From assembly GCA_973895155.1 (NCBI GenBank), contig OZ316893.1, forward strand, positions 19,596,857 through 19,660,856: a stretch of 64,000 bases of DNA. The letters run 5' to 3'. A model generated the notes under the pieces. The model worked only from the letters and a program-made list of their open reading frames with translations. It made no database searches and was not told the DNA's origin. Source of the stretch: Marsupella aquatica. Lineage: Eukaryota > Plantae > Marchantiophyta. Shown here one piece after another: positions 871-45,600 of the stretch (position 1 is its first letter; every line of letters begins with the position of its first letter). Both the position numbers and the translations under genes were made by a program.

Positions 871-1896
871 TCACTTGCCACCCCTCATCTTGTTGAGCTG
901 GTTTAAAGCGGGTTGGAGGATGTTGAAAAGAACCCATCCAACGGCTGGGAGAAGGACGACAAGAAGAACTAACGCTCGGGAATCGCTGTCAGCCAGCTGG
1001 GCGATCTCCTGAGCAGCATCTGCCTCATTAGCAACAAGGAGAGAAGCGGCTCCACCGAGCCCAATTGCTCCAACCAGACCTTTCACACCCCTCATCTTGT
1101 TCAACTGGTTCAAAGCGGGTTGGAGAATGTTGAAAAGAACCCATCCAACGGCTGGAAGAAGGACGACAAGAAGGACCAATCCTCGGGCATCATTGTCAGC
1201 CAGTTGGGTGATCTCCTGTGCGGCATCTGCCTGATTGGCCACAAGAAGAGAGGCGGCTCCACCGAGTCCAATTGCTCCAACCAAACCTTTCGTGTTCGTC
1301 ATCTTGTTCAACTGGTTCAAAGCCGGCTGCAGAATGTTGTACAGGACCCAGCCGATGGCAGGAACAAGGATTCCTAGAAGGACAAGACCCCTGCTGTCAT
1401 TGTCTGCAACCTGAGCGATCTCCTGAACAGCTGCCTCAGCCTGAGATGAGAAGGCAACAGATCCCACAGCTCCGAGCCCGAGTCCAGCGATCAATCCCTT
1501 CGTGGCCTTCATCTTGTTGAACTGGTTTAATCCAGGCTGCAGAATGTTGAACAGGACCCATCCAAGGGCTGGGACCAAAGGAATCAGTAGTGCCAGAGCA
1601 CGGCTGTCGTCATTTGCAGCAAGTGCCATCACCTGCTGGGTAGCCATGGCCGAGTCAGAGGTTGCCATTGCAGCAAACAAAGCACCTGCGATTGCGCTCG
1701 CTCCTTGAGTCAGTTCATCTGTAACTGGAGATGTCTCCAGCTTGTTCAATGCAGAAACGGTCAGCTGCTTCTTCAGCGAAGTCCTGGGCGTGCTCACACG
1801 CAGACGCTGAAGATCCTGGCCCCATACCCGACTGTTCTTTTGCACAGTCGCTACAACACTCAAACTGCTTCCAGCTAGTGCTGTCGCCATTGCCAT
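871..1896 (-). CDS. psbY: Photosystem II PsbY polyprotein precursor with four PsbY units
   Basis: Single-exon ORF. First ATGs are at 1896/1890 (the 1941 start in the track is TTG). A Ser/Ala/Arg-rich transit peptide is followed by four copies of D-x-R...P(A)xGWVL(F/Y)NILQP(A/G)LNQxNKM. Each copy is preceded by a hydrophobic thylakoid signal ending in AxA (AMA, AEA, ADA, ADA). Repeat period is 207/207/210 bp. Confidence 0.95.
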   Translation of the reverse strand: MAMATALAGSSLSVVATVQKNSRVWGQDLQRLRVSTPRTSLKKQLTVSALNKLETSPVTDELTQGASAIAGALFAAMATSDSAMATQQVMALAANDDSRALALLIPLVPALGWVLFNILQPGLNQFNKMKATKGLIAGLGLGAVGSVAFSSQAEAAVQEIAQVADNDSRGLVLLGILVPAIGWVLYNILQPALNQLNKMTNTKGLVGAIGLGGAASLLVANQADAAQEITQLADNDARGLVLLVVLLPAVGWVLFNILQPALNQLNKMRGVKGLVGAIGLGGAASLLVANEADAAQEIAQLADSDSRALVLLVVLLPAVGWVLFNILQPALNQLNKMRGGK

Positions 1897-1918
1897 TCGT
1901 AGCTTCGAAGCTGAAACC

Positions 1919-3008
1919 CTGCTTGAGCACGCGAAATCCAAGGTTACTACATCAATTCTCAGTAGAATCTAACACAGATTGTGGCCTTCCTCACATTCTC
2001 CCATAGGCCCAAAATATCCAATGAAACTTCTATGAATGACTCCAGTCCTCATGACCACTTCAGGTGAAGCGAGAGCCTTCCTTCGTGAACTAACCAAAAT
2101 CTCCACCCTGAGATACTAGTGTGAGCGCCAGGATGCCAGATAACCTGCTTTGATAACTGAGTTGGCACTCAGATGATCCACCAAGCACGAACTGGGGTTC
2201 ATAATCCACGAATAGCAAAGCTAATCCGGGCTATGTGACTGGAACGGGGGACTCCCTATTGACTATCGGTGAAACTAGAACGGATCGGCTGACATCATCT
2301 TCTGCTGCATATCTCATATCCAGCCATAGCCATGGCCCAGTTCTAGACAAGACTAGATATAGTTCCACTTTTTACAAAAAGCACTCACTGCGCCATCAAT
2401 CAGCTACCACAACAAGGATCACATGGAATCTATACGAAATGCAATACAAACCAATGACGGACTCATGAGCACCGCCCGGACGGCCGGCCAGACATGCAAA
2501 AGCATCCGCCCAGAACACAGACACATCCTTCAACGACAAAACCAAGGATACTTCGACTCATCGAATTAACATTAATGAAATGTTTTCATTTCGCACCCTG
2601 GCCATTCTCTTATTCGATTTCCCAAACTCAGCATGAATGCACCCTTCGGGCAAAGCGGACCGGAAGACTCTTATTACACCCATTCTCAGCTCACACTACA
2701 GAATCGAGGAAGGGAAAGTCCTTCTGCACTTGATTCTGCCGCATCCCACTCCCTTCCTCTCGTCACCGCGGTCTCAAATAACAGACCCATTCACCTCAGT
2801 GACAATCTCTCCATCTCTCTGGAGGCTCACCCTCGAAACCAGTCATTCAGTTCATTCATTTTCTTCATCACCAATCCCTACAAATTCAGCAGCTACTCTC
2901 CTTTCTCTGTGCAAGCAATGCGCGACGAAATTCCTAATGTGCATCGACTGACATCGGCATTGGGAGAAACCGAAAACAGATCAGCAGCAGCAGGGGAGAG
3001 AATTTCAC
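1919..3008 (-). other. Probable 5'UTR intron of psbY
   Basis: On the minus strand, donor CAG|GTGAAA at 3008 and acceptor AAGCAG|GG at 1919, just upstream of the ATG. A CT-rich leader lies at about 3010-3270. Inferred without transcript data. Confidence 0.5.
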
Positions 3009-3929: not shown

Positions 3930-4085
3930 GAGAGTGTGGACTATAATCAGATAAGGAATATCCCTAGCATTTTCTCCTTCACACAAGGTGACATTTGCAA
4001 TGGTTGTCACAGACTGTGAAGTATAATCATATAAGGAATAGTCCTAGCATCTTCTCCTTTACACAAGGTGACATTTGCAATAGTG
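3930..4085. repeat. Two-copy imperfect tandem repeat (~81 bp)
   Basis: tataatcaNataaggaata..cctagcat.ttctcctt.acacaaggtgacatttgcaat occurs twice. Confidence 0.75.
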
Positions 4086-9601: not shown

Positions 9602-11572
9602 TCAGTGAGGTTTGTCGCCAGTAACAGTGGCGCGGTACATAATTCTGGTGTGAGGCATGTAATCGGCTGTGGCATAGTGCTGTGTCACTCGGTTGTCCCA
9701 AAACGCAACATCATCTTTTTGCCACTTCCAGCGCAAGAAGTACTTCGGTTTTGTCGTGTGCTCGTAAAGGAAATCGAGCAACGCATCACTCTCCGAGGGC
9801 TTCATTCCAACAATGCGAATTGTAAATCCCTTGTTCACAAATAGTGCCTGCGCGGAAACAATTCCACTAAAACTCAGTATCCTGTCCAGAATGTCAACCC
9901 ACATTAGCATCGGCCAGATTCCAAGGCAGCAAGTGCAAGAGAGCCATATGGAAAAACCTAGCTAACACTAGCCCTATTCTCTCACGCGCACAGGGAGATC
10001 CAGGACTGCAGGAGAGAAGTCAGTCCAAGCGCTCCCGACAGACAGTTCACTGTTCCGAAAATACCAAATTCAGTGACCCTGAAGGAGAGTCCTCGGAAGA
10101 AGACTTGAGCATATGGTGAGTTGAAGAGATGAAAGACGGAGTCGAGGTGGTGGTTACCTTCCGACAGCTCTCAGGATGGGTCCTGACAACGGGATGGACA
10201 ACAGGAGGATTCTCACGAACAGCCTCCTCCCATCTCTTGTTGGCGTCCCAACTGGCTTGCTCGTGGAACCTCGGAGCAGGGAAAGCCTTCGTAATGGAGT
10301 GTTCAGCACTCAGCCCGAGCAGTAACGTTTGCATAGGCTCAGAGAGAGCCTCATACGCTGCAATTCCGCTTGCCCACAACGTATCTCCTCCTAATGGAGG
10401 GAGGACTTTTGCTGACAGTATTGAGCCTAAGGGAGGGTTGTCCACAAATGTAACGTCAGTGTGCCAATTGTGGTCCGCTTGGTCAGGAGAATTCTCCGCA
10501 TCAAATTTTAGTACCATGATTTCTGGCAGCTCCGGGCCCAAGTTGGGATAAATCGGGTGGACATATAGGTCGCCAAAATTCCTGGCAAATTCGCGCTGCT
10601 GGTGAGGCGTCACTGGCTGGTTCCGGAAGAACAGTACCTAGGAAAGATATTACAGTAGAAGATTCAAGTTAGACAATTTCATCAGGTAAGGGATAGCCCT
10701 GAAATCGTTCCCGAAGATGAATTACACCGGATGCTTTACACCATTTGCGCGAGAAATCAGTCAACATTGTAGTTGGGGTCTAAATGACACAGAGATAATG
10801 GGTAGTTAATGGAGAAAACTAATTAGACAAGTAAGCTCCACAGAATAAGGCCGGCGACCTTCTTCATCGGCCACAGCAGAGGCAAGAATCTACTTGACCA
10901 TCCGCAAATGCTGGCATCCATCAGTAACAAAGGCAACATAATTATCTACTCCGTCTTTTTGACCAGCTAACTACACAGCTCAATCCGTGATGGGTTGACG
11001 GTATTCGGCTTGTACATTGAGCTTCTACATTGAGCTTCTACATTGATGCCATGCTAGAGTACGACATAATTCACACCCTGGTATATATTTCAACCTCTCG
11101 AATAGACCCATTCGGAGAGAGGAGGAAGACATGGCTCGGGGGCCCAACGAAAAGAGGTCAGCTAAGGTCCCTAAGTTGCAAGAGACTTCAGCGGTGCTTA
11201 GGTGTGGACAATTGCGGAAATCGGGGATAAGCATAGAGGAAATCAGGGAAAACGGACAAATCCAATATCTGATGAATGTAGAAAATTGAGAAAATTGCAA
11301 CAGAGGAAGAGCGAGCGAAGAAAGTGAAAGTGCACCTGAAACTTCAGCAATGCTGTTCTGATCTGCTCGCGATTCCGCGGCGACAAGGTCTCGGAGAGAG
11401 TCAAGCCTTCAACTGTGGCTCCGATGGCGGGGGTGAGAGGCTTGATTTTGAGCGAAGATGCCGTCCACAAGCCAGGGGCGGAAGGTTTGCACGACAACGC
11501 CACTCCTTCTCCTCCCGCCCCTGGAAATCGAGCCAGTTGCTTCGGACTGCTACTTGGACTCCCTGTCGGCAT
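9602..11572 (-). CDS. tauD: Alpha-ketoglutarate-dependent taurine dioxygenase (TauD/TfdA family), bacterial-type, 3 exons
   Basis: Exons 11572-11336, 10637-10158 and 9847-9602 with two phase-0 GT-AG introns, about 320 aa. Motifs include IKPLTPAIGATVEG, FQ|VLFFRNQ, FGDLYVHPIYP, NWHTDVTF (HxD iron ligands), GGDTLWASGIAAYEALS, HPVVRTHP, ALFVNKGFT, WDNRVTQHYA (third His ligand) and RIMYRATVTGDKP. All are colinear with E. coli TauD as I recall it. Confidence 0.93.
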
Positions 11573-11887
11573 CGAAAATTGCAACTCCGGGAGACTGAAA
11601 TCTCCGCTCTTCAGTTTCAGCAGGACAGCAACGATGAGAAGGGGGATGATGACTACGATGCCAGCTCCGTCCAGTTGATCCCAATGAATTGAATAAATTA
11701 GACGTGCATCCCAGCTTCCACTCGTGCATCCAGGAATGCAGGACCGAGCTCAGCTAAGCTTTGGGAACAGTGCCGGTAGAAGATAGCTAGCTGTGCGTAG
11801 ACAGAGAAGAATTATTCCTAGGACGACTGTGTCTGAACTGCATTCCTGATTTGGGGGTTTGGGATCATGATGACCGTGTCTGCCCAC

Positions 11888-12016: not shown

Positions 12017-12192
12017 GTGTGGGTCTCAGTGGAGGGCTCGACTTCTGTTTTACGCACAAACATGTCACACGAGTTGAACTGTCACACCATAAGGTAGACT
12101 AACGTGTGGGTCTCAGTGGAAGGCTCGACTTCTGTTTTACGCACAAGCATGTCACACGAGTTGAACTGTCACACCATATGGTAGAATAACGT
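12017..12192. repeat. Near-perfect 87-bp tandem duplication upstream of tauD
   Basis: gtgtgggtctcagtgga.ggctcgacttctgttttacgcacaa.catgtcacacgagttgaactgtcacaccata.ggtaga starts at 12017 and 12104. Confidence 0.85.
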
Positions 12193-14477: not shown

Positions 14478-14825
14478 CACTCATCTAACTCAAATAAATC
14501 TGTTCTATTAACCAAATCTTCTGATATGACTTGTTTCCAGTAGCCACCAAGCCCTTATGCATGGAAACTTTTTGCTTGTTATTCAGCCACTCATCTAGAG
14601 TAGCTCACCGAAATCTGTCCTATTCACCAAATCTTCTGATAAAATTTGTTTCCACTAGCCGCTAAGCCCTTATTTAAGGAAACTTTTGCTTGCCAAAACA
14701 GACTTAGTCCCTATTCATGGAAGCGTTTGTTTGCCAAAATGAGCCCCAGTCCTTGGTGATAAAGCTTTTGCTTGTCAAAAGCAGACCCTGTATTGTCATG
14801 GAAGCTTTTGCTTGCCAAAAACACC
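14478..14825. repeat. Degenerate tandem repeat block (~110-bp unit plus repeated ggaa(a/g)ctttt(t)gcttg(c/t)caaaa motif)
   Basis: cactcatcta...aaatctgt.ctatt.accaaatcttctgata occurs twice; the gcttttgcttgccaaaa-like motif occurs about five times. Confidence 0.6.
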
Positions 14826-29310: not shown

Positions 29311-29543
29311 ATTGACAGGCGCTAATGAGTATCTTGGCACTAACAGTGTGTCCCCAAAGTGAAGAAAAGTTGAGCTATGGTACTTGCAAAACTTTTTGGA
29401 GCATTCTCAGAGTAGGGCTTGGACTAGAACCCCAACCCCAGTCGTCCTCATAGTTCGTAAATGTGGTATGGGAAAAAGTTTACGATCACCAGTTTCCTGC
29501 CAAGAGATTTGATGTAAATAATAAAGACACTACCAGTAACCTA

Positions 29544-29738
29544 TATTCCTTTATTCCATATCGCATTTACAGACCCACCAGTAAACTTTATTCCGTATCG
29601 CATTTACAAAGCCCACTGCGCCTTGCAGTCACCAAAGTTCTGTATTCCTTTATTCCATATCGCATTTACAGACCCACCAGTAACCTTTATTCCGTATTGC
29701 ATTTACAAAGCCCACTGCGCCTTGCAGTCACCAAAGTT
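29544..29738. repeat. 99-bp tandem duplication
   Basis: tattcctttattccatatcgcatttacagacccaccagtaa...gcccactgcgccttgcagtcaccaaagtt starts at 29544 and 29643. Confidence 0.9.
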
Positions 29739-30543
29739 GAGCCCCGGCTCTGCCAAATAGTTTCTCCAGACTGGCGGTCATGGGCTCCAGAAGGGGCAGC
29801 ATGATGCAGCAGGCAAATGCCCTCCTCTGACTGAAGAGTCCCAATCGCTGGATTGTGCTTCCTAGGGGATGAGGTGGGGTGTTGAAGATGTTTGTTTGGA
29901 CCTTCTGTGGTTCCTTGCTTGCCAAAACTACTCAGTGGAAAGTGTGTAGGGTGTGGGTGGGGAACCCAGCCCTACCCTAGAGGGCCTGGCTGCGGAAAGG
30001 ACCCTTCACACTTTTGAATCTGGATATTAAGATACTAGATGCACTTTCTATGAAATTAAAGTTACTTGTCTAAAAGTGTCATCCTAGATAAAGTGAACTC
30101 TGCTGTACATTGTGTGCAAGCTAAATTATGAATCTTAACGCTTGCAAGCAGGGAGAAAAAGGACCAAGAATTGCTGAAAAGGGCCAAACAAGGTATGTGA
30201 AGTACAATTAAACCGGGTTTAGAGGGCAAATGGAAACTCCCCAAACCTAGAACGAGGAAACGATGAGAAATCTAGAAATGCAGTAGTGGATGAGTCTAAC
30301 CAAGTCTGCAAATGGGACATGGATGTTTTCTAAGGGGCCAAGCCAACTAAAAGGTGGTGCCCTTCACCTAGCATTCCTGCTTTTGACACCCTCTATTGTC
30401 ATGTGGCCAGGGATGTGAATCATGGCATGCTTGCTTGAAAAGCATGGTGCATGGTCCCCGTCAAGGTCCAATAATTGATTGCAATTGGCCGATGAGCCCG
30501 TCCATATCTTTGAAAGGAACCTGGATGGGTACTACCTGGAACC

Positions 30544-30754
30544 TGTTGGAACTTTGTAGAAAGTTCCTGCCGTTACGAGGAAGATCTGATCTTGTCGTGT
30601 AGCGCGTATTTATCGGGCTCTCTCTCTGCTGTCGGATTTAGGGTCTCTCTCCTGGACGTTGATTCCCTTCCTTCCCGGCTGCAGCTGCCGCTACTTATTG
30701 GTTCATCGTCTCTGCACCTTTAGTTCATATTATGGTATGTTCATGTTTTCAACA
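30544..30754 (+). repeat. 5' LTR (211 bp)
   Basis: TGTTGGAAC...TTTTCAACA. By eye it differs from the 3' LTR by one 8-bp indel (gctactta) and one T/C substitution. Confidence 0.97.
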
Positions 30755-30766
30755 TGGTATCAGAGC
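30755..30766 (+). promoter_or_regulatory. Primer binding site complementary to initiator tRNA-Met
   Basis: TGGTATCAGAGC immediately after the 5' LTR. Confidence 0.95.
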
Positions 30767-30926: not shown

Positions 30927-33900
30927 ATGGAATTGTTAAAGTGTTTTTCTGAGAGTGACAAATTAGAAGGATCCAGCAATCATTTAGCGTGGACCATCCT
31001 CGTCAAGAATATGCTGAAACGTGATGAACTCTTCACTGAGCTCAACTTTGGCGTCAAGCCTGATGCCAATGGTCAAGTCCAAGATGGCGGAGCTCATCTC
31101 ACTGCACGTGAGATTGAAAAGAAGAAAGTATGGGCCACTTCGATTCTCGCTGCTACAATGAAAGCAAAATACCTGCCGACAGTTGATAAGTACTCAGATG
31201 ACCCAGCCAAGTGCTGGGACCACTTCCAACAACGATTTGGTGGTGCTCTTGTGCAAAGACGATTAATGCTGGAACAGAAGCTTGCAGACATTCGCATGTC
31301 TGACGGCACCTCTGTGGAAGACTTCATCAACAACGTTAACAATATTGCTGGCCAACTGAGCAGCATTGATGCTGAAGTTGCCGACGACAAACTGATTCAC
31401 CTGGTCCTTCGTGGACTCCCCCCTAGCTGGGGTTCTTTCGTGTCTGTTTTTTCTTCTGACCTCTCTCGCAACCCTCCTCCTCAGTTTTCCACTCTCATTG
31501 AGCGTATGCAGGCTGAAGAACTCTGGAAGAAGAACTCTCAGCGCGAACCTGTTGAAGAGGCACTGTCGGTCACTCGGTTTACCAGACCAAATGGCCGTGG
31601 TCGTGGAAGGTTTCAGCCTCGGCCTTCCTTCTCTGACCCTCCTCGCTATCCCTCTTACTCTCGTGCTGCAGGAGGACGTGGGATCCGCCGCAACACCACC
31701 TGCAACTACTGCGGCAAACCTGGACATTGGGAGGCTGACTGCAATCTCAAGAAGGTGGATGAGCAGATTGCTCAGCTACAACTTAAAGCTGCTGGCTTAC
31801 GATGCTTTCGTCCTCAAGCCAACGTTGCTGAGATCTCTCATGAGGACGAAGATTTCTACGAAGAGGAAGAAGAAGGCGAAGGCGAACCCAGTAACACTGC
31901 TCTTGAAGCCAATTTCACTGAGATTCTTCCTAGTCGCGAATCTAGTAATTGGATCTTAGACTCAGGAGCTAGTGTCCATGTCTCTGGCGACAAGTCTGTC
32001 TTCTCTGGACTAAATCCGTCTACTAGCTCAGGATCGGTCGCCACTGCAAGTGGTACCAAACTTCCTGTTGCTGGACACGGTACTGTCAACATTGATACAA
32101 ATAAAACAGTCCGCAATGTTCTCTATGTGCCCGGTCTTTGTCGTAATCTTATGTCCGTAGGTAATCTCACTGATGCTGGTCATAATGTTATGTTTAATTC
32201 CAAGTCCTGCCTTGTATTCGACAAAGATAACCCTCACAAAATCTTTCTCCGCGGCACTAGGGACCCCGCAAATCATCTATATCGGTTAACCCAGTCTCTC
32301 CCATCTATTCCACCCTCATCAACCTCCTCCCGCCTACTACCTCGGGTTCTATCTCAATCTGCACCTGTACTTAGTGTTGAATCTTCTCCCTCAGACTATC
32401 CTGTCGATCTATGGCACCGACGTCTGTGTCACGTGAACTTTCAAATGGTCCACCATATGTCTCATCGCGGTCTTGCTCTCGGTCTTCCATCTTTACCGAG
32501 AGTCAAACGGTCTTGTGAAACTTGTACTGTCACCAAACATCATCGCGACAAGACACCCAAGTCGTCTGCTACTCGTACTTCTCGCCCTTTGCAGATTATT
32601 CACTCTGACCTTTGTGGTCCTTTTCCTGTCTCCACATCTCAAAAATACATACTCACGTTTATAGATGACTTCTCTCGATTTACCTGGGTTTATTTCCTTT
32701 CTAGTAAAGCCGAAACTTTCCAACGTTTCCAGGAATTCAAGCTTCTTGTCGAGAAGCAATTCTCGCTTCCGATCTCATGTCTCCATTCTGATCGCGGAGG
32801 TGAGTACCTATCCACCGAATTTCTTGCCTTCTGTCGACAACACAGCATCCGTCGTCAGCTGACCGTGGCTCGCACACCTCATCAGAATGGAGTGGCCGAA
32901 CGAAAAAATTGTACCCTCCTTGAGGGCACCAGGAGCATTCTCCTCAGCTCTAATATTCCCATCTCCTTATGGACTGAAGCTGTTCGCACTGCTAACTATA
33001 CACAAAATCGTTGCGGCACTCGGGCACTTCACTTGCAAACCCCATTCGAAGCTTTACACGGTAAGAAACCAGATCTTTCACATCTCCGTGTTATTGGCAG
33101 TCTTGCTTATGTTCTTGTTCCTCCTCACTTACGCACTAAACTCAGCGCCAAGACCCTCCAGACTGTCCTGCTAGGATACGATGAACAATCTAAAGCATAT
33201 CGTTGCTATGACCCCTCTTGAAGACGTATTATCATTGCCTCCAATGTTAGCATTCATGAGTCTATCCGTGGGGACTTCCCCTCTAATCATGCTGCTGTCA
33301 CCAAGATCTTTCAACACTTGCTTGGTGAACCTTTTGTTGGTCCTCCTGACCAAGAGGGGGTAGCTACCATCGACAACTCTGCTGCTGCCCCAACTGATGA
33401 CAACTCTGTCGCTGCCCCTAACGGTGTTGAGCTCGTTCCGCCTGTGCCTCCGGATGCTGACATCGAGATTCCTGACTACACCAAGCTCCCCGACTCTCAT
33501 GCTCCTGCCACTCGTCATTCTCTCCGTGTCAGACGCCCTCCATCTTGGCATAACGACTATGACATGACCAATCGGGCTGATCAGCTTGACACATTCCTTG
33601 TGGAATCCTCTCAACCTGAGTCTGACAACATCAGTGTTACCGAAGCTCTTGCCCATCCCCTATGGCGAGCAGCTATGAAGGAGGAATTTGATGCGCTCAT
33701 CAAGATGGGCACATGGGATCTGGTTCCACTTCCACCAGGTAAACGTGCTTTGTCTGCTAAGTGGGTTCTTCGCTCCAAGCCATGTCTGCATCCAACTCAC
33801 TTCAGGCTAAAGGCATGACTTGTTGCTCGTGGTCTCGAACAACGTTATGGTGTTGATTATTTAGAGACTTTTGCTCTCGTTGTAAAATGGTCCACCCTAC

Positions 33901-35243
33901 GGACTGTTATCGCTCTGGCTGTGGCAAACGGCTGGGACCTACACCATATGGACGTGATCACTGCCTTTCTCAACGGCACCATCACCGAAGAGCTGTATAT
34001 GCAACAACCACATGGATTTGAGGTTCCCGGGCAAGAACATCTGGTCTGTCGTCTTCGCCGCTCCCTTTACGGCCTCAAGCAATCACCCCATGCCTGGTAC
34101 GAAGAAATAAATTCCTATCTGATTGCTTCCGGATGGACCAGGAGCATGGCTGACAGCAACTTATACTTCCTTCGTGAAGGCTCATCTATTGTGATTCTCA
34201 TGCTCTACGTGGACGACCTCCTAGTCACTGGTAGCAATTCGGAGAAAATTGCTGAGATCAAATCTCAACTCCACAATCGATACGACATGAAGGACCTTGG
34301 TCTTATCCAAAAATATCTGGGCATTGAATTCCAACGTACGTCTGCTGGGCTATTTCTACACCAAACTTCCTACTGCCAACAACTTGTTGCTGAATACGGC
34401 ATGACCGGGGGCACACCTGAATTTATTCCTCTTCCTGAAGGCCATGTTCTCACGTCAGACACAAATACACCTCCTGTGGATGTCTCTGATTATTGTCATG
34501 CAGTTGGGAAACTTATATTTCTCACTCACACTCGTCCCAACATTGCCTATGCTGTCGGCATCGTTAGTCGCTACATGACTCGGCCTCAACAAAGTCATTG
34601 GGAATCTGTCAAACACATTCTTCGCTATCTTAGTCACACGACTGACTACGGTATTCATTGTCAAAAATCTCCCTGCCCTCTTCTTACTGGCTTTACCGAT
34701 GCTGATTTCTTGGGCTGCCCTGAAACTCGTCGTTCCATTGGCGCTTATCTCTTTCAACTCGCTTCGGGCCCAATTTCCTGGTCTAGCAAGCAACAACCTA
34801 CTGTTTCAGACAGTACCACTGAAGCGGAGTACAAAGCGCTCTCTGAGGGAGCAAAGGAAGGAGTCTACATTCGTCGTCTACTCTTTGAGCTCAGCTCCGA
34901 CTCCTCTCTCCAGGTTCCTCTTACCTTTTCCAACCCGTCTATTCAGCAAGATCTTTCGCAAGCAGCTATTCCCTCTGCTCTTGACCTTCACCTACACTGT
35001 GATAATCAAGGCTCTATAAAACTCGCTCGCAATCCAGTTTTTCACGCCAGGACCAAGCACATAGAGGGGAAACACCATTTCATTCGTGAACGTGTGCTTG
35101 AAAGGGAAATTTCACTTTCTTACATTAATTCTGCTGATAATCCTGCTGACTTGCTCACCAAGCCACTAAGTCGCCTCAAATTTGAGAAACACAGAACCTT
35201 TACTGGAGTCAAATCAATTAAAGCCGCTCTCACTGCCAACTAG
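30927..35243 (+). pseudogene. Copia Gag-Pol polyprotein in a single frame, interrupted by two TGA stops (33219, 33816)
   Basis: The three ORFs in the track share one frame. Zinc knuckle CNYCGKPGHWEADC; protease WILDSGAS; LWHRRLCH..C..C; integrase HSDLCGP/FIDDFSR/SDRGGEY/QNGVAERKN; RT KA*LVARG, MDVITAFLNG, LYGLKQS, YVDD; RNase H DADF, TEAEY, CDNQG, HARTKHI, ADLLTK. Confidence 0.95.
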
Positions 35244-35291
35244 CCTACTTAACTGCCTACTTAACTATCTATCACTTTCTTATCCCTTCTG

Positions 35292-35954
35292 CTAATGCTC
35301 ATCTATCTCATACTCTACTGCTCTACGATGATACCTCATAAACTGCTCCGCCTCTACCAATGTTCTAAATGCCTCGTGACAATTCCCTGAATAACCCGTC
35401 ACCTGCATGCTTGCATCTGCCCACGATCCATATATTCCAGGTACTCGACCCACTGCTACTGCATAGTACTTCTTCGGCGCTACTCCTCCAGCAACCCGGC
35501 TCCCCTCTCGCTCCTCCGCCCTCTGCTGAACCCTCATCTTACTTGGCCATCTCCTCAGAATCGACGCTGCCGCATACTGTTGCTCCTTACTACATGGTTT
35601 CCATTGCTGGTCGACTTCCATCTCCTCCTGTGTGTGCTTCTTCCTTGGAGTCTGCTCGGACTCAGAGGGGGCTACCAGCACACTCTTCGGCACTTTCGGT
35701 GGAGAAATCCATGCATCAGAGGGGGCTTCATCTCCTGCTTCGCTCTTGCCACCTGCCACTTTTTCGATCTCTTCATGACCACAATCGTCTTTCGGCTCCA
35801 GTTCTCTCACCAAGCGCGCCAACAGCTTCACTGTCTTGTGGGCAATTTGGAGCAGCAACCCCACTGCCTCTAACACTGTCCATAACGTTCTTAACACTGC
35901 ACGACACATTGCCCGTCCTGTCTTGGTCTTCATTTCTCCTGTTTGGATCGACAT
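35292..35954 (-). CDS. Antisense accessory ORF of the Copia element: 220 aa with a C-terminal RNase H1 N-terminal / caulimovirus viroplasmin (Cauli_VI) hybrid-binding domain
   Basis: True ATG at 35954, intact to its stop. Residues 161-207, KKYYAVAVGRVPGIYGSWADASMQVTGYSGNCHEAFRTLVEAEQFMR, match the RNase H1 hybrid-binding consensus (YYAVxxGRxxGIYxxWxxCxxQVxGxxxxx(Y/H)KxFxTxxEAxxF). The ORF fills the space between the pol stop and the PPT. Confidence 0.85.
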   Translation of the reverse strand: MSIQTGEMKTKTGRAMCRAVLRTLWTVLEAVGLLLQIAHKTVKLLARLVRELEPKDDCGHEEIEKVAGGKSEAGDEAPSDAWISPPKVPKSVLVAPSESEQTPRKKHTQEEMEVDQQWKPCSKEQQYAAASILRRWPSKMRVQQRAEEREGSRVAGGVAPKKYYAVAVGRVPGIYGSWADASMQVTGYSGNCHEAFRTLVEAEQFMRYHRRAVEYEIDEH

Positions 35955-35986
35955 CCCTCTCAGACTAAATCTTCCTCGAGAGGGGG

Positions 35987-36189
35987 TGTTGGAACTTTGT
36001 AGAAAGTTCCTGCCGTTACGAGGAAGATCTGATCTTGTCGTGTAGCGCGTATTTATCGGGCTCTCTCTCTGCTGTCGGATTTAGGGTCTCTCTCCTGGAC
36101 GTTGATTCCCTTCCTTCCCGGCTGCAGCTGCCTTGGTTCATCGTCTCTGCACCTTTAGTTCATATTATGGTATGTTCACGTTTTCAACA
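35987..36189 (+). repeat. 3' LTR (203 bp)
   Basis: TGTTGGAAC...TTTTCAACA, preceded by the PPT and followed by TSD GAACC. Confidence 0.97.
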
Positions 36190-37427
36190 GAACCCTGGCT
36201 GGTGTAGTAAATCAATCTCTTGCCTCAAGTTCTTTCAATTAATTAAAGAGTGCCAGAATGGCCCTACATGCAGCACTGCTGCAGGAACGGAAGCGTAAAG
36301 ATTTCATGGACAGCCACACCGCAGGTGCAAGAGTCTTGAACAGACCATGGACATAATACAATCGTAGCGATGTTCGGTGACTACTCAACTCAATCGCCTT
36401 AGAGGCCAGTCGAGCACGTTCAATAGAGTGATCCAAAGTGAGAGCAACTAAGACGTACCCCACTTGCGGGCTTGATATTACAAATGCAAATGATGAAAAA
36501 GGTGACTAGTAGTCATATGAGATTAGGAGGACGGAGACCCTGCATGAGGCTAACTGGACGGGGGACAAAGTGACTGAGCTCCTTGGCAAATTAGATGAAT
36601 GTTTATCCACTTTTCGCGGCAGATACCCGAAAGCAGCTGACAACGATATATGGTAATGTTTAACAATAAAAACGCATTAGAGACTTCTCAATGTACGTTA
36701 AATAATATCTAGCTCTTGCCTTGACCTATTAACGAGAGCTCAGGCAGCTTTTCTGGGCTTGATAATATATAATATTAAATTATACAAATTTAACTGCAAG
36801 GTCCTCGGTCAGATCTGAGGGCTATTTAAACAGCAATCATGTAAATACTAAATAAGCTAGTACTAACTCTATGATCTGATCGAGGTCATGCATGGCCACA
36901 GCCTTCTCGTTTAGAGCAGGAATTTAGGAATGGTCAGATGATCGATCAAGTCCCAAGACTGCCTGACCTGACTCAATCATCTATCGAACAACCAGACTAC
37001 GTACTGATCCTCTGACTGTGAAAATGCAAAGGTACGATGGTGCGCAGCCGAACGCATATTATACACTATTTACCTAGACGCATGCCTCCACGTTGAACGT
37101 GTAAATCAGCGCGCTGGAGTGTATCGAATTTGAAGATCGGTAGCGATCTCGATCTCTCTCAAACGAGGATGTCCAAGATTCTCTCCTCGAGTCCAAGACT
37201 CCCTCCTCAAGCGAGGAATCTCGTTGTATGACCTTGACGAGGCTGTTATCCTACACAGTATAGTAAGTACACAATGAACGGCACGTTAAGGCTTTCAATT
37301 CAAACATTCTCTGTTCTAAACTGGTTTTCATTGTACAAGCAGCCCACTCATCATAATGAAAAGAGTCACCAGCATTAATTATCGACCTTGAAAAGACCCT
37401 GCAGTTAACGAACATTTGATGACTAAC

Positions 37428-40400
37428 TTAGACCATTCTAATTGCACCAATGGTCATATGAGGAAAAGACCAGGACATTCTGCATCTTAATATGAATTCC
37501 GGTACGGATCTCCTAGATATATAAATCACTATACCTTGGGCGACAAATTCATGCAGGAGATGACTGGTACTAAGTCGATTCCTCTGCTTCAGATCTTCTT
37601 GACCGGCGTCCAGATGTGACACCGGAAGTTCGCTGTGCACATTATCAATGTTTCTGACCGCATCATCTTGATCACCAGAGTCAAAATGATCTTTCGGTCG
37701 CTGAGAATTCGGATGTCCTTGATTACTATACTTTCGTTGTGGAGCTGCTCCTGGAAGTGATAAACCATCGGAATGCCTTAACCCTAAGGTTAACGAGACT
37801 CCACCATTTGCGGAAGTTGTAGCTCGAGAAACAAAGTTAGATCCTGGATATCCAGTTAAATTGCCTCCCATGTAAGCACCAAATCTTGCGCCATTAGCTG
37901 CTAGAATATCCTGATGTTGACTGTAATCTTGATCAGCAGAGCTGTTATAGTTGCCATCAATTCTACAAGGATCATGATATGGCCCATGTGAAACTGTTTC
38001 AATGTCCATACCCATGATCGGAGAACCCAAGTGATCACTGGAGTTGTGAATGCCATTTCTAGCTCTCTTAAGGATACCACCCCTCTGATCAGCATCAAAG
38101 TCTACGCTGCTTGAGGTTGAGGCATTCTGGGTCGCACCATGCGCACTTCGCAAGTTAGATTGAGTATACATTCCATCTCCACTTGAAATAGTGATCCTCT
38201 GCTGCTTTTCTGCTCCAGTCTCGGTATGTGCATTTGAGAAACTAGCGGCGCCTATATTAGGATCATCGTAATCCAGGGCTTCATTCTCTCGTCGACGTTC
38301 CTTAGAAGTTTTTTTCTCTGCAGAGCCACCCTCATCCGAATTGCTAAATTCTTCCAAGTACATCTCTTCTACCATTGGTTTCCACAACCTCACACGGGCA
38401 TTGATGAACCAATTTGAGACCTGTCACACGAAGGTTGAAAGCAAGTTATTGTTAACAATTTTCAGGTCCACGTCAATGAGAGAATTTTCCTCCTGTAACC
38501 TAGTCAAACGATTATATATCAGATCAGAAGCCTGTATTCTACTTACTGGAGCTCAGGATGTCTAGCTAGTAGTATAACTACAGTAAAAAGGGCCTGCCCA
38601 CCTCACGCATCAGCATTTATATGCATATGTGCTCAATTTTAATATATGTCTCATACTTGGTACTGCCGACGCTCTAGATATGGAATTCCGGTACGAGTTA
38701 ACGAGAATTTACCTGGCTCCTAGTGAGCCCAGTCTGTTTTGCTAGGAAGAGTTTGTCCGAGTCCTTGGGGTACCTGCATGGGCAAAATGGAGAGCGATTC
38801 GAAGTTAGCACTAGCTAGTTCGAACCAATATATATATGAGAGAGAGAGAGAGAGAGATTGCAACGCAGATTTATGATTGTTTAATGTGTAACCCAGAGTC
38901 CGGGACATGTATGTCGGATAGTTGACGACAACGGTAGGACGTGCTGTTTCGAAGGTTTTGCACGAATGCAGGCCTATTAAAATATGCTCGGTACCTAACG
39001 GTTGTAAAGTACTTTTTCCCTAGCAGGCAAATTTGACGAAGATCAATTTCGTTGCAACGATTTGTCAGGCCCAAACTAAGTATTCGAATTACGGCTAGTA
39101 GACTGGCGACAGAATTCCATCTGATTGATAATAATGGTATTCTACCACTGACTTCAGGCCCAGGAATATATGATGAGGTATGCTCTTACGGATGAAGGAA
39201 GTGCTCAAATAGCCAAGACCGCAAAACTGAGACTGCTCGTTCTGGTAGCCCTCTCTGAGGTCGCCAGGCGTGTTGCTGAAGCATGCCCAGTTGCTGCAGA
39301 GTACGCTGCTGTCGCAGTTGTTGATCAACGAAACGGAGCGAGGAGAGATCTCTTCCTGCATATCCCGGAGATGTATCTTGCTCTCCCAGTGCTCTTTTGA
39401 CTGCTCTGAGCTGCGCGCTAATGGCATCTCTTAAGCATCTGAAGTGTCTTGACATTGCCTGCAATGCCAGAGCTGTGTATGGCGTTGCGGCGTCAGGACC
39501 AGCTAATGCGTTGAATTGATTGACGATATCCATCATATTCTCGCCATAAGCCCGGTACCTTCTGTCAACCTGTAGAAAACAATCCGTCCCCGCCCAAACC
39601 CGGAATCAATTATCAATATATATTTTGAAGGAATTCATTGATCGCAAATCCATCCATTATCCTTTCATGGATGTTAGTGGCAGTTCATGTATCTCACCTT
39701 CGTCCTCCAAAGAGAATTATATGACTACTGTGAATGGGAGTAAAGCAAGTGAACTCGTGCAACTAGCCTCGATCATTGGACGTAGAAAAAAACCTTTTGT
39801 GGCAAAAATTGAACTTTTAAAACATAAAATGACATAGATACAGTACAAAGTAAGGAATACCAGAGCAATGTTATATAACCCTTCGTGACATAATAAATGC
39901 ATATGTATCAAGGGAACAATAAAAATGGACAAAGGAAGAGATAACCACGGCAAATGAATATGACCAGTCTTTTTAATAAATCTCAATCATGCATGAACGA
40001 TACTTTGCTTAGGTGCTGCTTCTGTAGGTTTGAATCTCCCGTTACCCTATCTAAGATACTAGATCTAACGACGCCACCTGATCGGCGTATCTGTCCGTTT
40101 GTGTTTAGCGAAGTTCATTGTAAGAGACGAAGCGAACCTTACCTCTTCAAGATAGGACTGCAACCTCATTTTTTTGTTCTCCAGTTCATCCCTGCTTTCA
40201 GACTGTCCATGTGTCTGAAACATAGCTTCCCGTCCTCGTGCCTCCGCAAGTAGTGAAGACGAACTACCAGGAAGTACGGCAATGTTCATCATGCTAAAAT
40301 CCTTTCGAGTGGAGTCTGCACCTACAGGGTCTCTATTGGCATGAAAGCTGGCAAAAGTGTTGCTCGCACTGGCGGACGATGGCTGATCAGTGCTCCAAGT

Positions 40401-42692
40401 TGAACGTTGTGACCTCAGATGGTCATTATTGACTCTTCTCTCATATCTTCTAACGACACAAATCTCATTGAGAAGAAGTTGACATAGTTTCAGGTACTTG
40501 CTGGCATGGCTCCCGTATGGAGCATGGGGGTCAGTGCTAGGGTTGACGAACAGACCCTGCTTACCCTCCAGCGGCTGTCCATAGTTGTTAAGTCTTTGAG
40601 CAGCTGCAGACATGGCCAAGTCGTGATCATCTCTCTGAGGGCGAAATCTGCTTAGTATCCCATTGTACCTCCCCTCGGTGCATTCCATCCTCTTTCCTTT
40701 GGCCTCCACAGAAGCTTGAGACATTACAGTTGCGAAAACATCAATGTCTGCCTCATGAGTTCGTCCATGCTCAGGCAGCTGCAACTGAAGAGCCGAAGGC
40801 TGCTGGGATGACAGGGATAGCGAAAGGCCTTGCAATTGGCAGTTTCCCATCCCAGTGGACGAATTTTGACCATCACTATTTTGGAAAAATGAATTGTGAT
40901 GGAGTTGATTGACTGAGGACAAAGTGGATGTTCTCCTTGATCCAAACTGAGATATTCCAAGCTCAGCTTGCTGTAGATGGTCGCTCAGTTGACCTGCAAA
41001 TGGTTGACTGTGCACCGTCGAATCACTTCCAGGAAGAAACAGAAGCTCATTTCCTCCATTTCGCCAACTATTGTTGTATCCTTGATTGCCGACCATATGC
41101 TGGCTCGGTACAGCAGAAGGAATTCCCTGATGTGCTAGCAGTTGAGAGCGTTGGGCAAGGGGGCTCTGTGCGAGTGCAGCTGGGTGAACCGGGATGCTAA
41201 GAAAACGCTGTTGGTTATGACTGGTGTTCAGTTGGTCGACCCCTGAATGCGACATGAGAACCAGATTCCCAGAGGCTGCAACGGATGGTTGAGACTCAGC
41301 GTTAGGGCCCCCGAAACTTGGATTTAAGCACAACTGCATGGCTTCAGTTTGCGTTTGTTGCGGGGAGAAATATGTTGTCCCATCACGATTGGGAGGCTCT
41401 TCATGACTATAAGGATCATTGTCTTGTAGACCTTCCGAGAGCAGAGAGGATACGGGGGTCCCAACGATAGGTGAAATCGCTTGAAGATTGCTGTGGACGT
41501 TGCAGTCAAGAAGGGAACTGTTGGCATACTGCGGAGCAATATTCGTCCAGCTCCCTTTTAGTGAGGGAGTACTATATCCGCGGAGTCTCCCAACGAGATT
41601 TTGATTGGGGTACAGTGCTCCAACATTCCCAAATGGAACAACTTCATCAGGCACACCATTCGAAGCAGACCCACGGGATTGATGACTGCTAGAGTGTTGC
41701 AGTCCGAGAAGCTCAGCTCCGGTTGAGAAATTGTAAGAATCGGATGACATTAGATTTGTGTTGTACGAAGGAAATATCTCGGAGACGTTTGACTGCGGCA
41801 CATTCTCCTCGGGGTAAACCTGCACAGATTCTGCAGCGGTATCTACCATGTCATTCTCTGAATGCTGCTGGTTGAACTTCGACTGCTCTTCTTTGGACGG
41901 GTTCTGGTCTGAATGGAAAATCGATTGGCCATTTCCAAGCTGATGCTCATGACTAGGTCCTGCTGACTCGTGAGTTCCAGATTCCGGCCTGATTTTCTCA
42001 TTCCTTTCATCCTGCCCACTGTCAGCTGGGTGCTGCTGTATCATTGACTGCTCTTCAGTAATGATCACCGGCGCCAATTGATTTCCACCCCACTGCTCAG
42101 TAGCGTCGGTCGATGGATCTGAACCATTAACCATATTTCGGTCGTGAACCCGATCGTGAATAGCTGCTGATGTTGCAGTGTGAAGTTGGTTATACGAAAA
42201 ATCATCTTTTTCAGGAACTCCTGTGCATTGACGTCCACCGTTACTAAGTTGAGAACTCCCCGCAGATGTACCCGAACTTTGGGTGTTGTTGGTATCAGTT
42301 CCAGTCGACTGGAAGGATGATCCACCGTGCAGCAACTGTTGGGAAGCAGCCTGAGAATGTGTACTCGACAAAGATGGGTCTTCGACAACAATCTCTTGCG
42401 GCCTCGAAGAAGGAAAGAATGTATTGACGGTAGTAGAAGCAGGTACCTGGCAACTTTCAGACTTCGAATCCAAGGCTGGGCTCAGAAATCCATCTCCCGG
42501 AACATTGTACGTGAAGGGAGAGCTTGATGTTCTAGACGTCAGCTGTGTTGAGCTCTCTGCACATCTTGTGGTCATCAAGAAAGGCATGGTACGGGTTTGA
42601 GATGATGATGTTGTTGGACTAAGAGGTGGTTCTGAAAGAGATCCCATTTGATGCATATGGTAGGATCGTCCAAGGGCTCCACCCCTTAACAT
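37428..42692 (-). CDS. BELL: BEL1-like (BELL/BLH) TALE homeodomain transcription factor
   Basis: Exons 42692-40143, 39569-39190, 38773-38713 and 38420-37428 (alternative end: donor at 37534 to a mini-exon 37398-37379). Motifs: [20 protein letters not shown] (SKY), LEEV|DRRY...[16 protein letters not shown] (BELL/POX), [26 protein letters not shown]|[20 protein letters not shown]|[28 protein letters not shown] and LLHEFVA. Confidence 0.96.
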
Positions 42693-45600
42693 GATCTGAT
42701 CCTTGTCTCCGCTCACCCAGTGTTCAATTTTTGCTGCAAGCACAAAGATAAAGCATCAAAACACTGAATTCCGATCTTCTATGTAACTGCAGCTTAGAGA
42801 ACTGCCGAGTTAAAAGAAAACCATTTGAAAAGGTCCAAAGACTCAGATTTGTAGTCTTTGATAAATAGTTTTGAGTTTTCGTAGCTACTCGTGTGGTCTG
42901 GGACTCACTTGTTCACAGATAGACTGATTCATCTTGGAGATTAGTCATTGGATCTTGCCAGATTTATTGAGATTATCTAAAGTCTATGTTACGTCAAGAC
43001 TGTCAATTGAATCATAGTTTTATGCCTCAGCTAGATTGCTGTCATATGCAACATAAGTTCACTGTCTCATAAGCTCGTAGTTTCAGTCTCTTGGATACAC
43101 AGCTACAGCTTAAAAGTTTAGCTTGAAAATTTGAAAGTAGGGCGATCCGTCAACTTACTGCATGAAAGTCACGTCAAGACTCTGAAGAACTTAACCAGTT
43201 AGAAGCTCAGCAACTCGGCTGGAACCAAATTGGCCGTAGTAACGTGCTACTCCGCAGGGACTCTTTTGTATTGAACAATGACATTACAGCCTCCTCCTAG
43301 TCACTGGCCAACAAATTGGAAGATCACCAGAAAGTGTTATTTCCTCGATCATTTCCCAGTCGAATTATCAACAAAAATCAACAATGGCTAGTAATAAGAC
43401 AAGAGGTGTGGGCTGGCTTAAAAGTTGCTCAGGCTTGCATGGGTGGAACGAAAGCTGCAGTCAGACCGTGAGTACACAACCTCAATCTATTCGTGCCGAA
43501 CAATATGTCAATAGAGCACAACTGCACAACCCTAGGCCTTGAGCTGTAACTGTCCAAATTACAAGGTCCACTGCAAAGTTTTTGGATCTTTCAACCAGCT
43601 TACGGAGCACTGCGGGACGCGATTGCTCTCGCGTTCCCTCTTGGATTGAATTTTCATCAGATTGAGAGGTACATAATTATACCAGATAAGTTCAGAAAGA
43701 CGATGCATATGCACATTCTGAAATGTAACGACTTGTAGAGACCATTGATCATATATACCTGTGTGTGCATCTCGATTTTCATCTTTGCTCGATATTCAGC
43801 AGCACCCGGATATGGGCAGGTAAACTTGGGCCATCATATCTATTCCTCGATAGTCCGAAAGCACATAAGCTGGTAAGTATTTTATACTGCACAGACCAAC
43901 AAGAGTATCAGGGTTCATATAGAAGTACTTCAAAATCATCATGTCTTATCTTGACATGCAGCTTCATCGATGTAACAGTAGCATCTCTGAAAATTCCAAG
44001 GAAACAGCAAAGCAAAGGAATTCCCAGAATGACACCAAGCATTGACGATTGCATCCAGCTGAGCTCGAAGTAAAGCGTAGAAGTCCATCCTTCGCATTGA
44101 TGCAATCCTAAGGTCTGCGGATAGAAAACGACTGGGATGTCCGGATTCAACCAGTTTGTTCGATTCAATTGATACATCATATATGTGCCTCAGATGTTCC
44201 AAAGATATTCTAAGTTTGTCTTCATCTAGGTGGTGCGTGGTTGGAATATTTCTTCATAGACTTTGTCTCTTTCTAGATCCGACCAAGACCCGATCGATAC
44301 CCGATCCCCGTGATCTCCAAGAATTCACGTTCGGATTCCAAAGGAGTAACGCATGGTGTCTGCTATTGTTGGAAGATGATAGGCGTAAGCGATTTTTACG
44401 GTGAAATGCCGTGAGTCCACCTGGCAGAAGTGTCAAGGGCCTTGTGATCGCCATTACATCCTCCCTCGCTGTGGTATCATGGCTTCTCTCGCTAGTTCAA
44501 TGAAGGTGATCTACAGGGCCATGCTGATAGATCTTGAGAGCCCAGGCATTCTTGTACGCGATCACCTTGCCTCGCAGCGGTATCCATCTCAACAGTAGGT
44601 TGCGAAGATCTATTACAGCAATTGCTGCACGCAAAACTGGGAGCCACGAACTATTTCTCGCCGTGACTAACCGTCGAGTAGATCAGCTTCTCATCAGACT
44701 CTAGTTTTTAGTTAGAACGCGGGCTACTCTGCATTCCGGAAAACCCTGCAAAACTGAAGCCCAACAAAATTTACAGTCATGAGGTCCAGAAACAGTTTCA
44801 AGCCTGCGCAAGCTGTGAGAGCTGGAGCCGCGACAGATGTATCTCCTTCTCGAAATCTACTCAGGTGTCCCGGGGTTGACAGATGAATCATCAAACGGTT
44901 TACTATGACGGCTTCTAAAAGTAGTCTGAGTCCGTTTTAGGAGGGGAGGAAGCGCCCGTTGTTCACGGAGCGAATGGACTACATGGGAAACACACCATGA
45001 CGCGTTTGGCACTACTTGGGGTTCGAGAAACTTTTTGCGTAAAAAGCTAGTCAACAAGGCGTTGATAGAAGTGTTCGGTCGGCTTTGATGATATCGTCAA
45101 AGCTTGTAGGACTCCCCTCATCGAGAATAATGAAGTGCCTCCAGTGGCTTGGGTGGTCATTTCGCTAGAGACTCTTCCCTGGCAGACAGCGAAAATTAAT
45201 TTGTAGCAAACACTGGAGCACACCATCTACTTGTAGTCGAGAACGTCCTGCACAGAATTGCCTCAGCCCCCGGGCCAGACATTTCGGAGGCAACAAGGCA
45301 TTCTCTGTTAGAATGACAGAAGAGCGGAACTCTTCAGACGCTCCCAGGTTGAAAGCTAGATCCTAGCACCAAGGGTGCGCTGCAGCGCGCGTGAACGTTC
45401 CTGAGGTGAACTTTTAGTCAGCTCAGCTCGATTCTGCGTCGATCGTTCGCGCGTTGATGGATGTCGTTGTTGGATCGAGGTTGTGGCAAAGCAAAGAGTC
45501 TGAGCCCTGGGTTCTTAACGTTAACTCTCAAGTGAACCAGGTATGAGGGATTCCGAAGCTCCGTGCATGAAGAGCATAACCACAATTAACAGAGGAGCTC

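Follow-up and report, generated by a model that had tools for sequence, protein, structure and literature searches.

An antisense open reading frame in a liverwort Copia retrotransposon encodes a stand-alone RNase H1-type hybrid-binding domain

The window analysed here, a 64,000-nucleotide stretch of Marsupella aquatica contig OZ316893.1, contains several protein-coding genes and a Copia retrotransposon. The genes include one for a PsbY precursor that lacks introns and has four PsbY repeats (871-1968, minus strand), a TauD-family dioxygenase (10047-11749, minus strand), an SBF transporter and a BELL-type gene with POX and KN-homeobox domains (37428-42755, minus strand). Two-copy direct repeats of 74-99 bp are found at 3931-4084, 12017-12190, 14486-14687 and 29541-29738. 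The BELL-type gene is transcribed towards the 3' LTR of the retrotransposon, and its last long open reading frame (ORF) ends ~1.2 kb from that LTR. Read-through from this gene could give antisense RNA, at this copy alone.

The Copia element is 5646 bp long and is flanked by a GAACC target-site duplication (30539-30543 and 36190-36194, plus strand, as are all parts of the element described in this paragraph). Its 5' LTR of 211 bp has TG...CA ends (30544-30754) and is followed by a primer-binding site (PBS; 30755-30766), which we take to be of the complete initiator tRNA-Met type. Gag, protease, integrase, reverse transcriptase and RNase H are encoded in one single frame (30927-35243), with a zinc knuckle between gag and protease and with two in-frame stops in the pol of this copy (33219-33221 and 33816-33818). 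A polypurine tract (PPT; 35975-35986) precedes the 3' LTR of 203 bp (35987-36189). The LTRs are identical at 202 of 203 aligned bases and differ further by a single 8-bp indel. This near-identity, together with the GAACC duplication, indicates a recent insertion. The acidic motifs of the native RNase H were found by eye and the domain looks intact. A 12-bp tandem duplication lies directly after the pol stop (35244-35267) and is missing from several contigs in all four sequencing runs considered below. The 3' LTR contains a TATA-like, AT-rich 7-mer (36050-36056), which by eye is plausible on either strand. An earlier note made from the sequence had described a Copia element bounded by a target-site duplication, and the LTRs, 5-bp duplication, PBS, PPT and gag-PR-INT-RT-RH order are indeed all present.

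The liverwort Calypogeia fissa provides the nearest named relatives of the pol protein (52-53%). In a tree of the query and 61 of the 120 listed relatives, composed without REXdb reference sequences, pol and the C. fissa elements fell into one clade of 20 rows with a support of 98. An insertion of ~20 residues in the RNase H domain (34890-34990, plus strand, limits approximate) precedes the CDNQ motif and is common to a clade of Calypogeia and other pol proteins. The insertion is possibly the hallmark of a bryophyte Copia lineage that has no name yet. The PBS, as assigned above, argues against membership of the Bryco lineage. Bryco elements have a PBS complementary to half of tRNA-Met in 100% of 6 elements, according to the part of the REXdb paper available to us (PMC6317226).

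A gap of 743 bp separates the pol stop from the 3' LTR, and most of it is occupied by a stop-free ORF of 220 aa on the opposite strand (35292-35954, minus strand). The earlier note had reported such an ORF filling ~740 bp, and this was confirmed. The note had also placed the start ~30 bp inside the LTR boundary; the ATG does lie close to the boundary, 33 bp away, on the internal side of it and not within the LTR. When the gap was resampled by dinucleotide type, an ORF beginning with ATG reached 220 codons or more in 1 of 3000 resamplings and 199 codons or more in 7 of 3000. The length of the ORF alone is thus moderately unusual, and it is the PF01693 domain match described below that decides. 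An overlapping sense ORF of 199 codons (35369-35968, plus strand) was considered and rejected, as it has no Pfam match and only 4 of 19 variants are synonymous in it; it probably just mirrors the antisense gene. An Rfam search gave no match. A promoter scan, using a bacterial model on this plant host, also gave none.

The predicted protein has three parts. A long amphipathic helix is predicted at aa 10-52 (35799-35927, minus strand), with a central Glu common to homologues; the earlier note had proposed a helix for aa ~16-52. A low-confidence linker, probably disordered, spans aa 56-137 (35544-35789, minus strand) and differs in length among homologues. The earlier note had drawn attention to a PRKK patch in this linker; the linker itself stands, and the patch is not kept among homologues, where basic residues directly before the C-terminal domain are kept in core members. 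The third part is an RNase H1 hybrid-binding / Cauli_VI domain (HBD) at aa 162-205 (35340-35471, minus strand), and the ORF stops 15 residues past it. In an AlphaFold model built from a 6-row alignment, pLDDT was 72-88 for the helix and 82-90 for the HBD, and the linker was of low confidence. No catalytic RNase H domain was found in the same chain, and PF01693 was the sole domain in all 9 members of the alignment. A transmembrane helix is not favoured for the N-terminal segment, given a best 19-residue hydropathy of 1.5-1.7 in the query and nearest clusters and the central Glu; the value for the N-terminal segment of the homologue P0249 was 2.2. A wide structural search with the model returned generic long-helix matches only (Z at most 4.7).

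The identity of the C-terminal domain, which the earlier note had recognised as an RNase H1-type HBD, was established by profile and structure searches. PF01693 matched over its full length (model positions 1-44 of 44) with an E-value of 7.4e-17 and 61.8 bits against a curated cut-off of 21, and it matched 9 of 9 alignment members. The yeast HBD (1qhk) was also matched (E 2e-5). The top Foldseek rows for the model were the human HBD (3bsu), with an rmsd of 1.2-1.3 Å over 44-46 columns. The E-values of these rows were only 0.02-0.3 because the HBD makes up one fifth of the chain. The top viral fold matches were TAV proteins.

We then compared the binding surface of the domain with that of the human HBD, which consists of W43, K59 and K60. 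W43A abolishes hybrid binding and K59A/K60A lower affinity ~10-fold, as reported in the part of the source available (PMC6846478). The W43 equivalent was kept in 9 of 9 family members, the Y29 equivalent was invariant in the family, the F61 equivalent was kept, and the net charge of the domain ranged from +1 to +6. At the K59 position, the query has E, and Q or E was found in 7 of 7 intact core members (from 4 independent clusters) and also in P0332. The F58 equivalent was H in 7 of 9 members, the query among them (H193), and a new Arg, R197, was present in 8 of 9. As a reference we surveyed 469 HBDs from the matches, 227 of which were classed as RNase H-linked by a rough catalytic-motif rule. 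K59 was K or R in 208 of these 227, and the K60 position was naturally variable (K or R in 55 of 227). The retention of W43, Y29 and positive charge alongside the changes at K59 and F58 suggests a domain that is selected yet altered. Since the K59-equivalent lysine is Q or E and F58 is mostly H, classical RNA:DNA hybrid binding may be weakened, or its specificity shifted, possibly with compensation. The earlier note's reading of hybrid binding in the manner of RNase H1 is weakened by these changes.

Three to four further sequence clusters (P0193/P0284, P0238/P0372/P0373, P0249 and P0295) have the same layout of N-terminal helix, linker and C-terminal HBD. Among the best 150 of 1963 matches in a representative protein library, the best HBDs were those of P0193, P0249 and P0238, with 60-68% identity to the query HBD. 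These three proteins have 154-163 aa; each begins with a hydrophobic segment, continues with a linker and ends in a single HBD. The helix pattern of the query with its central Glu is common to three clusters, and P0249 instead has a shared linker motif. Four homologous clusters begin near Met16 of the query. A profile search added P0295, whose similarity ends midway through the HBD, and P0332. Membership of P0332 in the family is doubtful, as its layout is similar but neither tree places it within the group. P0295 and P0025, the latter being the sister of the query pol, each lie on one Logan contig, which is 1775 bp long in both cases. This agreement in length is circumstantial; it is suggestive of P0295 and P0025 belonging to one element, and the Copia context of the database homologues is putative.

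No family member with its DNA context turned up in the locus scans. A single-sequence homologue search found 12 RNase H-type proteins only. A metagenome scan with P0001 gave a family member with DNA context in 0 of 86 stretches, and one with A2 (best 80 of 231 matches) gave a Copia pol in 0 of 80 and an RNase H catalytic match in 66 of 80. Three scans of viral contigs gave no family member, and a scan of prokaryotic genomes gave none with DNA context and two short, distant Copia-like contigs. Trees of the HBD were built from 47-49 columns, without host-plant RNase H1 and P6 sequences. In FastTree the 7 core domains formed a clade with a support of 0.25, and in IQ-TREE a Xylona domain fell inside the group (99/69). 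The nearest HBD in these short-domain trees was ascomycete, with weak support. The matches also included P0201 (772 aa), with two HBDs and, by eye, Cys/His knuckle-like motifs, and P0236 from the diatom Attheya, with an HBD similar to that of P0201. These two may be further retroelement proteins that carry an HBD. In P0134, eight HBDs follow one another in tandem.

Four sequencing runs from two studies contain the region, and one of these runs is possibly the window's own source. A 169-bp stretch of the HBD matched 8 contigs in run X1 and 7 in run X2. Besides the type of the window itself, these comprised a close variant, a collinear copy that has diverged, and four types matching inside the HBD only. 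Two of these four types are linked to Copia parts. A contig of 1416 bp is collinear with the window at similar spacing across RNase H, where it differs at 31 of 175 bases, the HBD, where it differs at 12 of 69, and the PPT/LTR start, and its linker did not align at 80%. A contig of 2810 bp, matched between two comparisons by its depth of 16.2, links the HBD to the PPT/LTR start. Further contigs join RNase H to the PPT and have no 80% match to the ORF. Five loose contig ends on the HBD, translated by eye, had no stop in the ORF frame, and 31 of their 48 residues were identical; one loose end was identical to the query at 16 of 30 bases, yet at 7 of 10 residues. A 1267-bp contig is decaying, with a 1-base loss in pol, small linker insertions and changes at S177 and Y175. 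P0295, with its similarity ending midway through the HBD, also counts as a decaying copy. Decaying copies are normal for transposons. At least four diverged HBD-coding types thus recur in the contigs of two runs, and at least two of them are joined to Copia parts, so the ORF is not a one-off capture.

To assess selection, 19 ORF variants were classified, 12 coming from one comparison and 7 more from a second, represented by 40 of 248 rows; a variant at 35924, carried by all covering contigs, was left out. In the ORF frame 12 of the 19 listed variants were synonymous against 5.4 expected (P 0.001) under base-matched random placement, these counts being of positions and not of independent events. 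Within the HBD this was true of 9 of 14 listed variants (null 4.2, P 0.007). In the other five frames, the number of synonymous variants was 2-4 of 19 in four and 10 of 19 (P 0.04) in one plus frame. As a control, 22 of 27 pol variants were synonymous (null 7.8); by comparison, constraint on the antisense ORF looks weaker than on pol. The earlier note had asked whether the ORF is retained in relatives and under purifying selection. The diverged HBD-coding contigs and homologue clusters speak for the former and the synonymous bias for the latter, and we consider it very probable that the antisense ORF is a selected gene.

What might such a protein do? Our leading reading, which we hold about as readily as we doubt it, is that the element encodes a trans-acting, non-catalytic duplex-binding protein that self-associates via its helix and protects dsRNA or RNA:DNA intermediates of the element. 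The protein would be translated from a separate antisense mRNA starting in or near the 3' LTR, and would act in trans because it is not part of Gag-Pol. It may self-associate through the predicted N-terminal helix, so that several weak HBDs would gain avidity and offset the lost K59. The assembled protein would cover the duplex RNA or RNA:DNA intermediates of the element itself and likely shield them from host silencing or degradation. The element would make its own dsRNA problem, because an antisense mRNA is fully complementary to the genomic RNA, and a binder that leans towards dsRNA would suit that problem. The points against this reading are the loss of K59, the decaying copies, the partial variant lists, and the intact appearance of the native RNase H, which means that nothing needs replacing. 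Tentatively, a bryophyte Copia may have taken an RNase H1 HBD, perhaps of fungal origin, and made of it a minimal P6-like silencing suppressor or replication-body nucleator. As part of that tentative proposal, the P6-like design of helix plus dsRNA-binding domain would have arisen in Copia independently, in convergence with caulimoviruses.

An unlikely alternative to duplex shielding is that the protein is a replication cofactor, which sits in the particle or docks on RT-RH, holds the hybrid and aids reverse transcription or RNase H processivity. Hybrid holding is the canonical role of the HBD in cellular RNase H1, as far as the available part of the source goes (bioRxiv 10.1101/572842), and Tat elements have gained an extra RNase H, again from sources seen in part (PMC4408406, PMC10508981). 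The ~20-residue RNase H insertion could, speculatively, serve as the docking site, but it is found in many pol relatives without a known extra ORF. The ORF is moreover separate, antisense and without a link to Gag-Pol, and K59 and F58 are altered. Rather less likely still, the HBD fold may have been repurposed to bind proteins such as host translation or silencing factors, like the MAV region of P6, with nucleic-acid binding being minor. The family-wide change of K59 to Q or E and the newly conserved H193 (7 of 9) and R197 (8 of 9) would fit such a module, as would the binding of ribosomal proteins and eIF3 by the TAV region of P6 (PMC7102451, available part). The retained W43, Y29 and positive net charge speak against it, and with one gag-pol frame reinitiation is not obviously needed. 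It is improbable that the protein is a nuclear reader of R-loops at the integrated element or target chromatin that regulates transcription or steers integration. The conserved basic residues just ahead of the HBD in core members and the nuclear antisense protein of Grande (PMC7264820) favour this idea, which has a single insertion site as its basis and is countered by the unconserved PRKK patch and the altered hybrid-binding residues. That the ORF is a passive captured fragment whose selection signal reflects its donor gene, or a cis-acting RNA element that overlaps it, is very improbable: broken copies exist, and stand-alone HBD genes are common and captured by other transposons, such as the Pleurotus Helitron with capE (PMC4289320, consulted in part), but the synonymous bias lies in the ORF frame among copies, the HBD is conserved as much as RNase H while the linker diverges, and there is no Rfam match.

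What antisense extra ORFs do in plant LTR retrotransposons is acknowledged to be an open question, and reviews see no clear similarity between the encoded products and known proteins (PMC7264820). The HBD in the M. aquatica element is small, with solved structures and known binding residues, which makes the question of function directly testable by standard assays. The K59 change, being family-wide, is a naturally occurring variant in which specificity for dsRNA as against hybrid could be studied. If the P6-like reading is true, the element would provide a retrotransposon accessory protein with recognisable, testable biochemistry.

As the earlier note had supposed, no Copia with a PF01693 domain was found in the literature covered, most subscription journals lying outside that coverage; within it, PF01693 is named in only 2 papers. 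In the available part of the REXdb paper, PF01693 is not listed in the table of extra-ORF domains and 3'-reverse ORFs amount to at most a few percent per Copia lineage (PMC6317226). According to the same part of that paper, REXdb counted ORFs of at least 250 codons and domains in at least 5 elements (PMC6317226), so it would miss an ORF of 220 codons. A Copia antisense ORF bearing PF01693 is apparently undescribed so far, and antisense 3' extra ORFs are hereby extended to Copia.

Among known systems, the ORF resembles antisense ORFs known from the Retand, Ogre and Tat III elements of Gypsy in its position between pol and the 3' LTR, its orientation and its retention across copies (PMC7264820; also PMC11963269 and PMC4408406, in the parts available), and these are features of a conserved antisense 3' extra ORF (aORF-3R). 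It differs from those ORFs (Grande gene23, TRP28, plant mobile domain) in superfamily and domain, and its gap, at 743 bp, is short. The captured gene capE of a Pleurotus Helitron likewise places a PF01693 HBD inside a transposon; that is, however, a DNA transposon, and in the part of the paper available the gene is described in one long copy and not lineage-wide (PMC4289320). With the RNase H1 HBD (PF01693; 3bsu, 1qhk) the domain shares a full-length Pfam match, the fold and the equivalents of Y29, W43 and F61. Unlike RNase H1, the antisense protein has no catalytic domain, carries its HBD at the C-terminus behind a long helix and linker, and shows F58 changed to H and K59 to Q or E. The caulimovirus P6/TAV protein also belongs to a reverse-transcribing element and combines an N-terminal helix with a PF01693 domain that follows it and is not catalytic; in P6 the helix mediates self-association and the PF01693-type domain binds dsRNA, according to the part of the source available (PMC5670102). 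P6 has ~520 aa compared to 150-220 aa in the present family, in which the HBD ends the protein and the gene is antisense. D3, D4 and the zinc finger of P6 are absent from the antisense protein, and fold similarity beyond the HBD was not supported (TMq ~0.2, with high rmsd in long alignments). Because the similarity ends at the HBD, the antisense protein parallels part of P6 but is not a P6. The comparison suggests that the same domain has been recruited more than once by reverse-transcribing elements.
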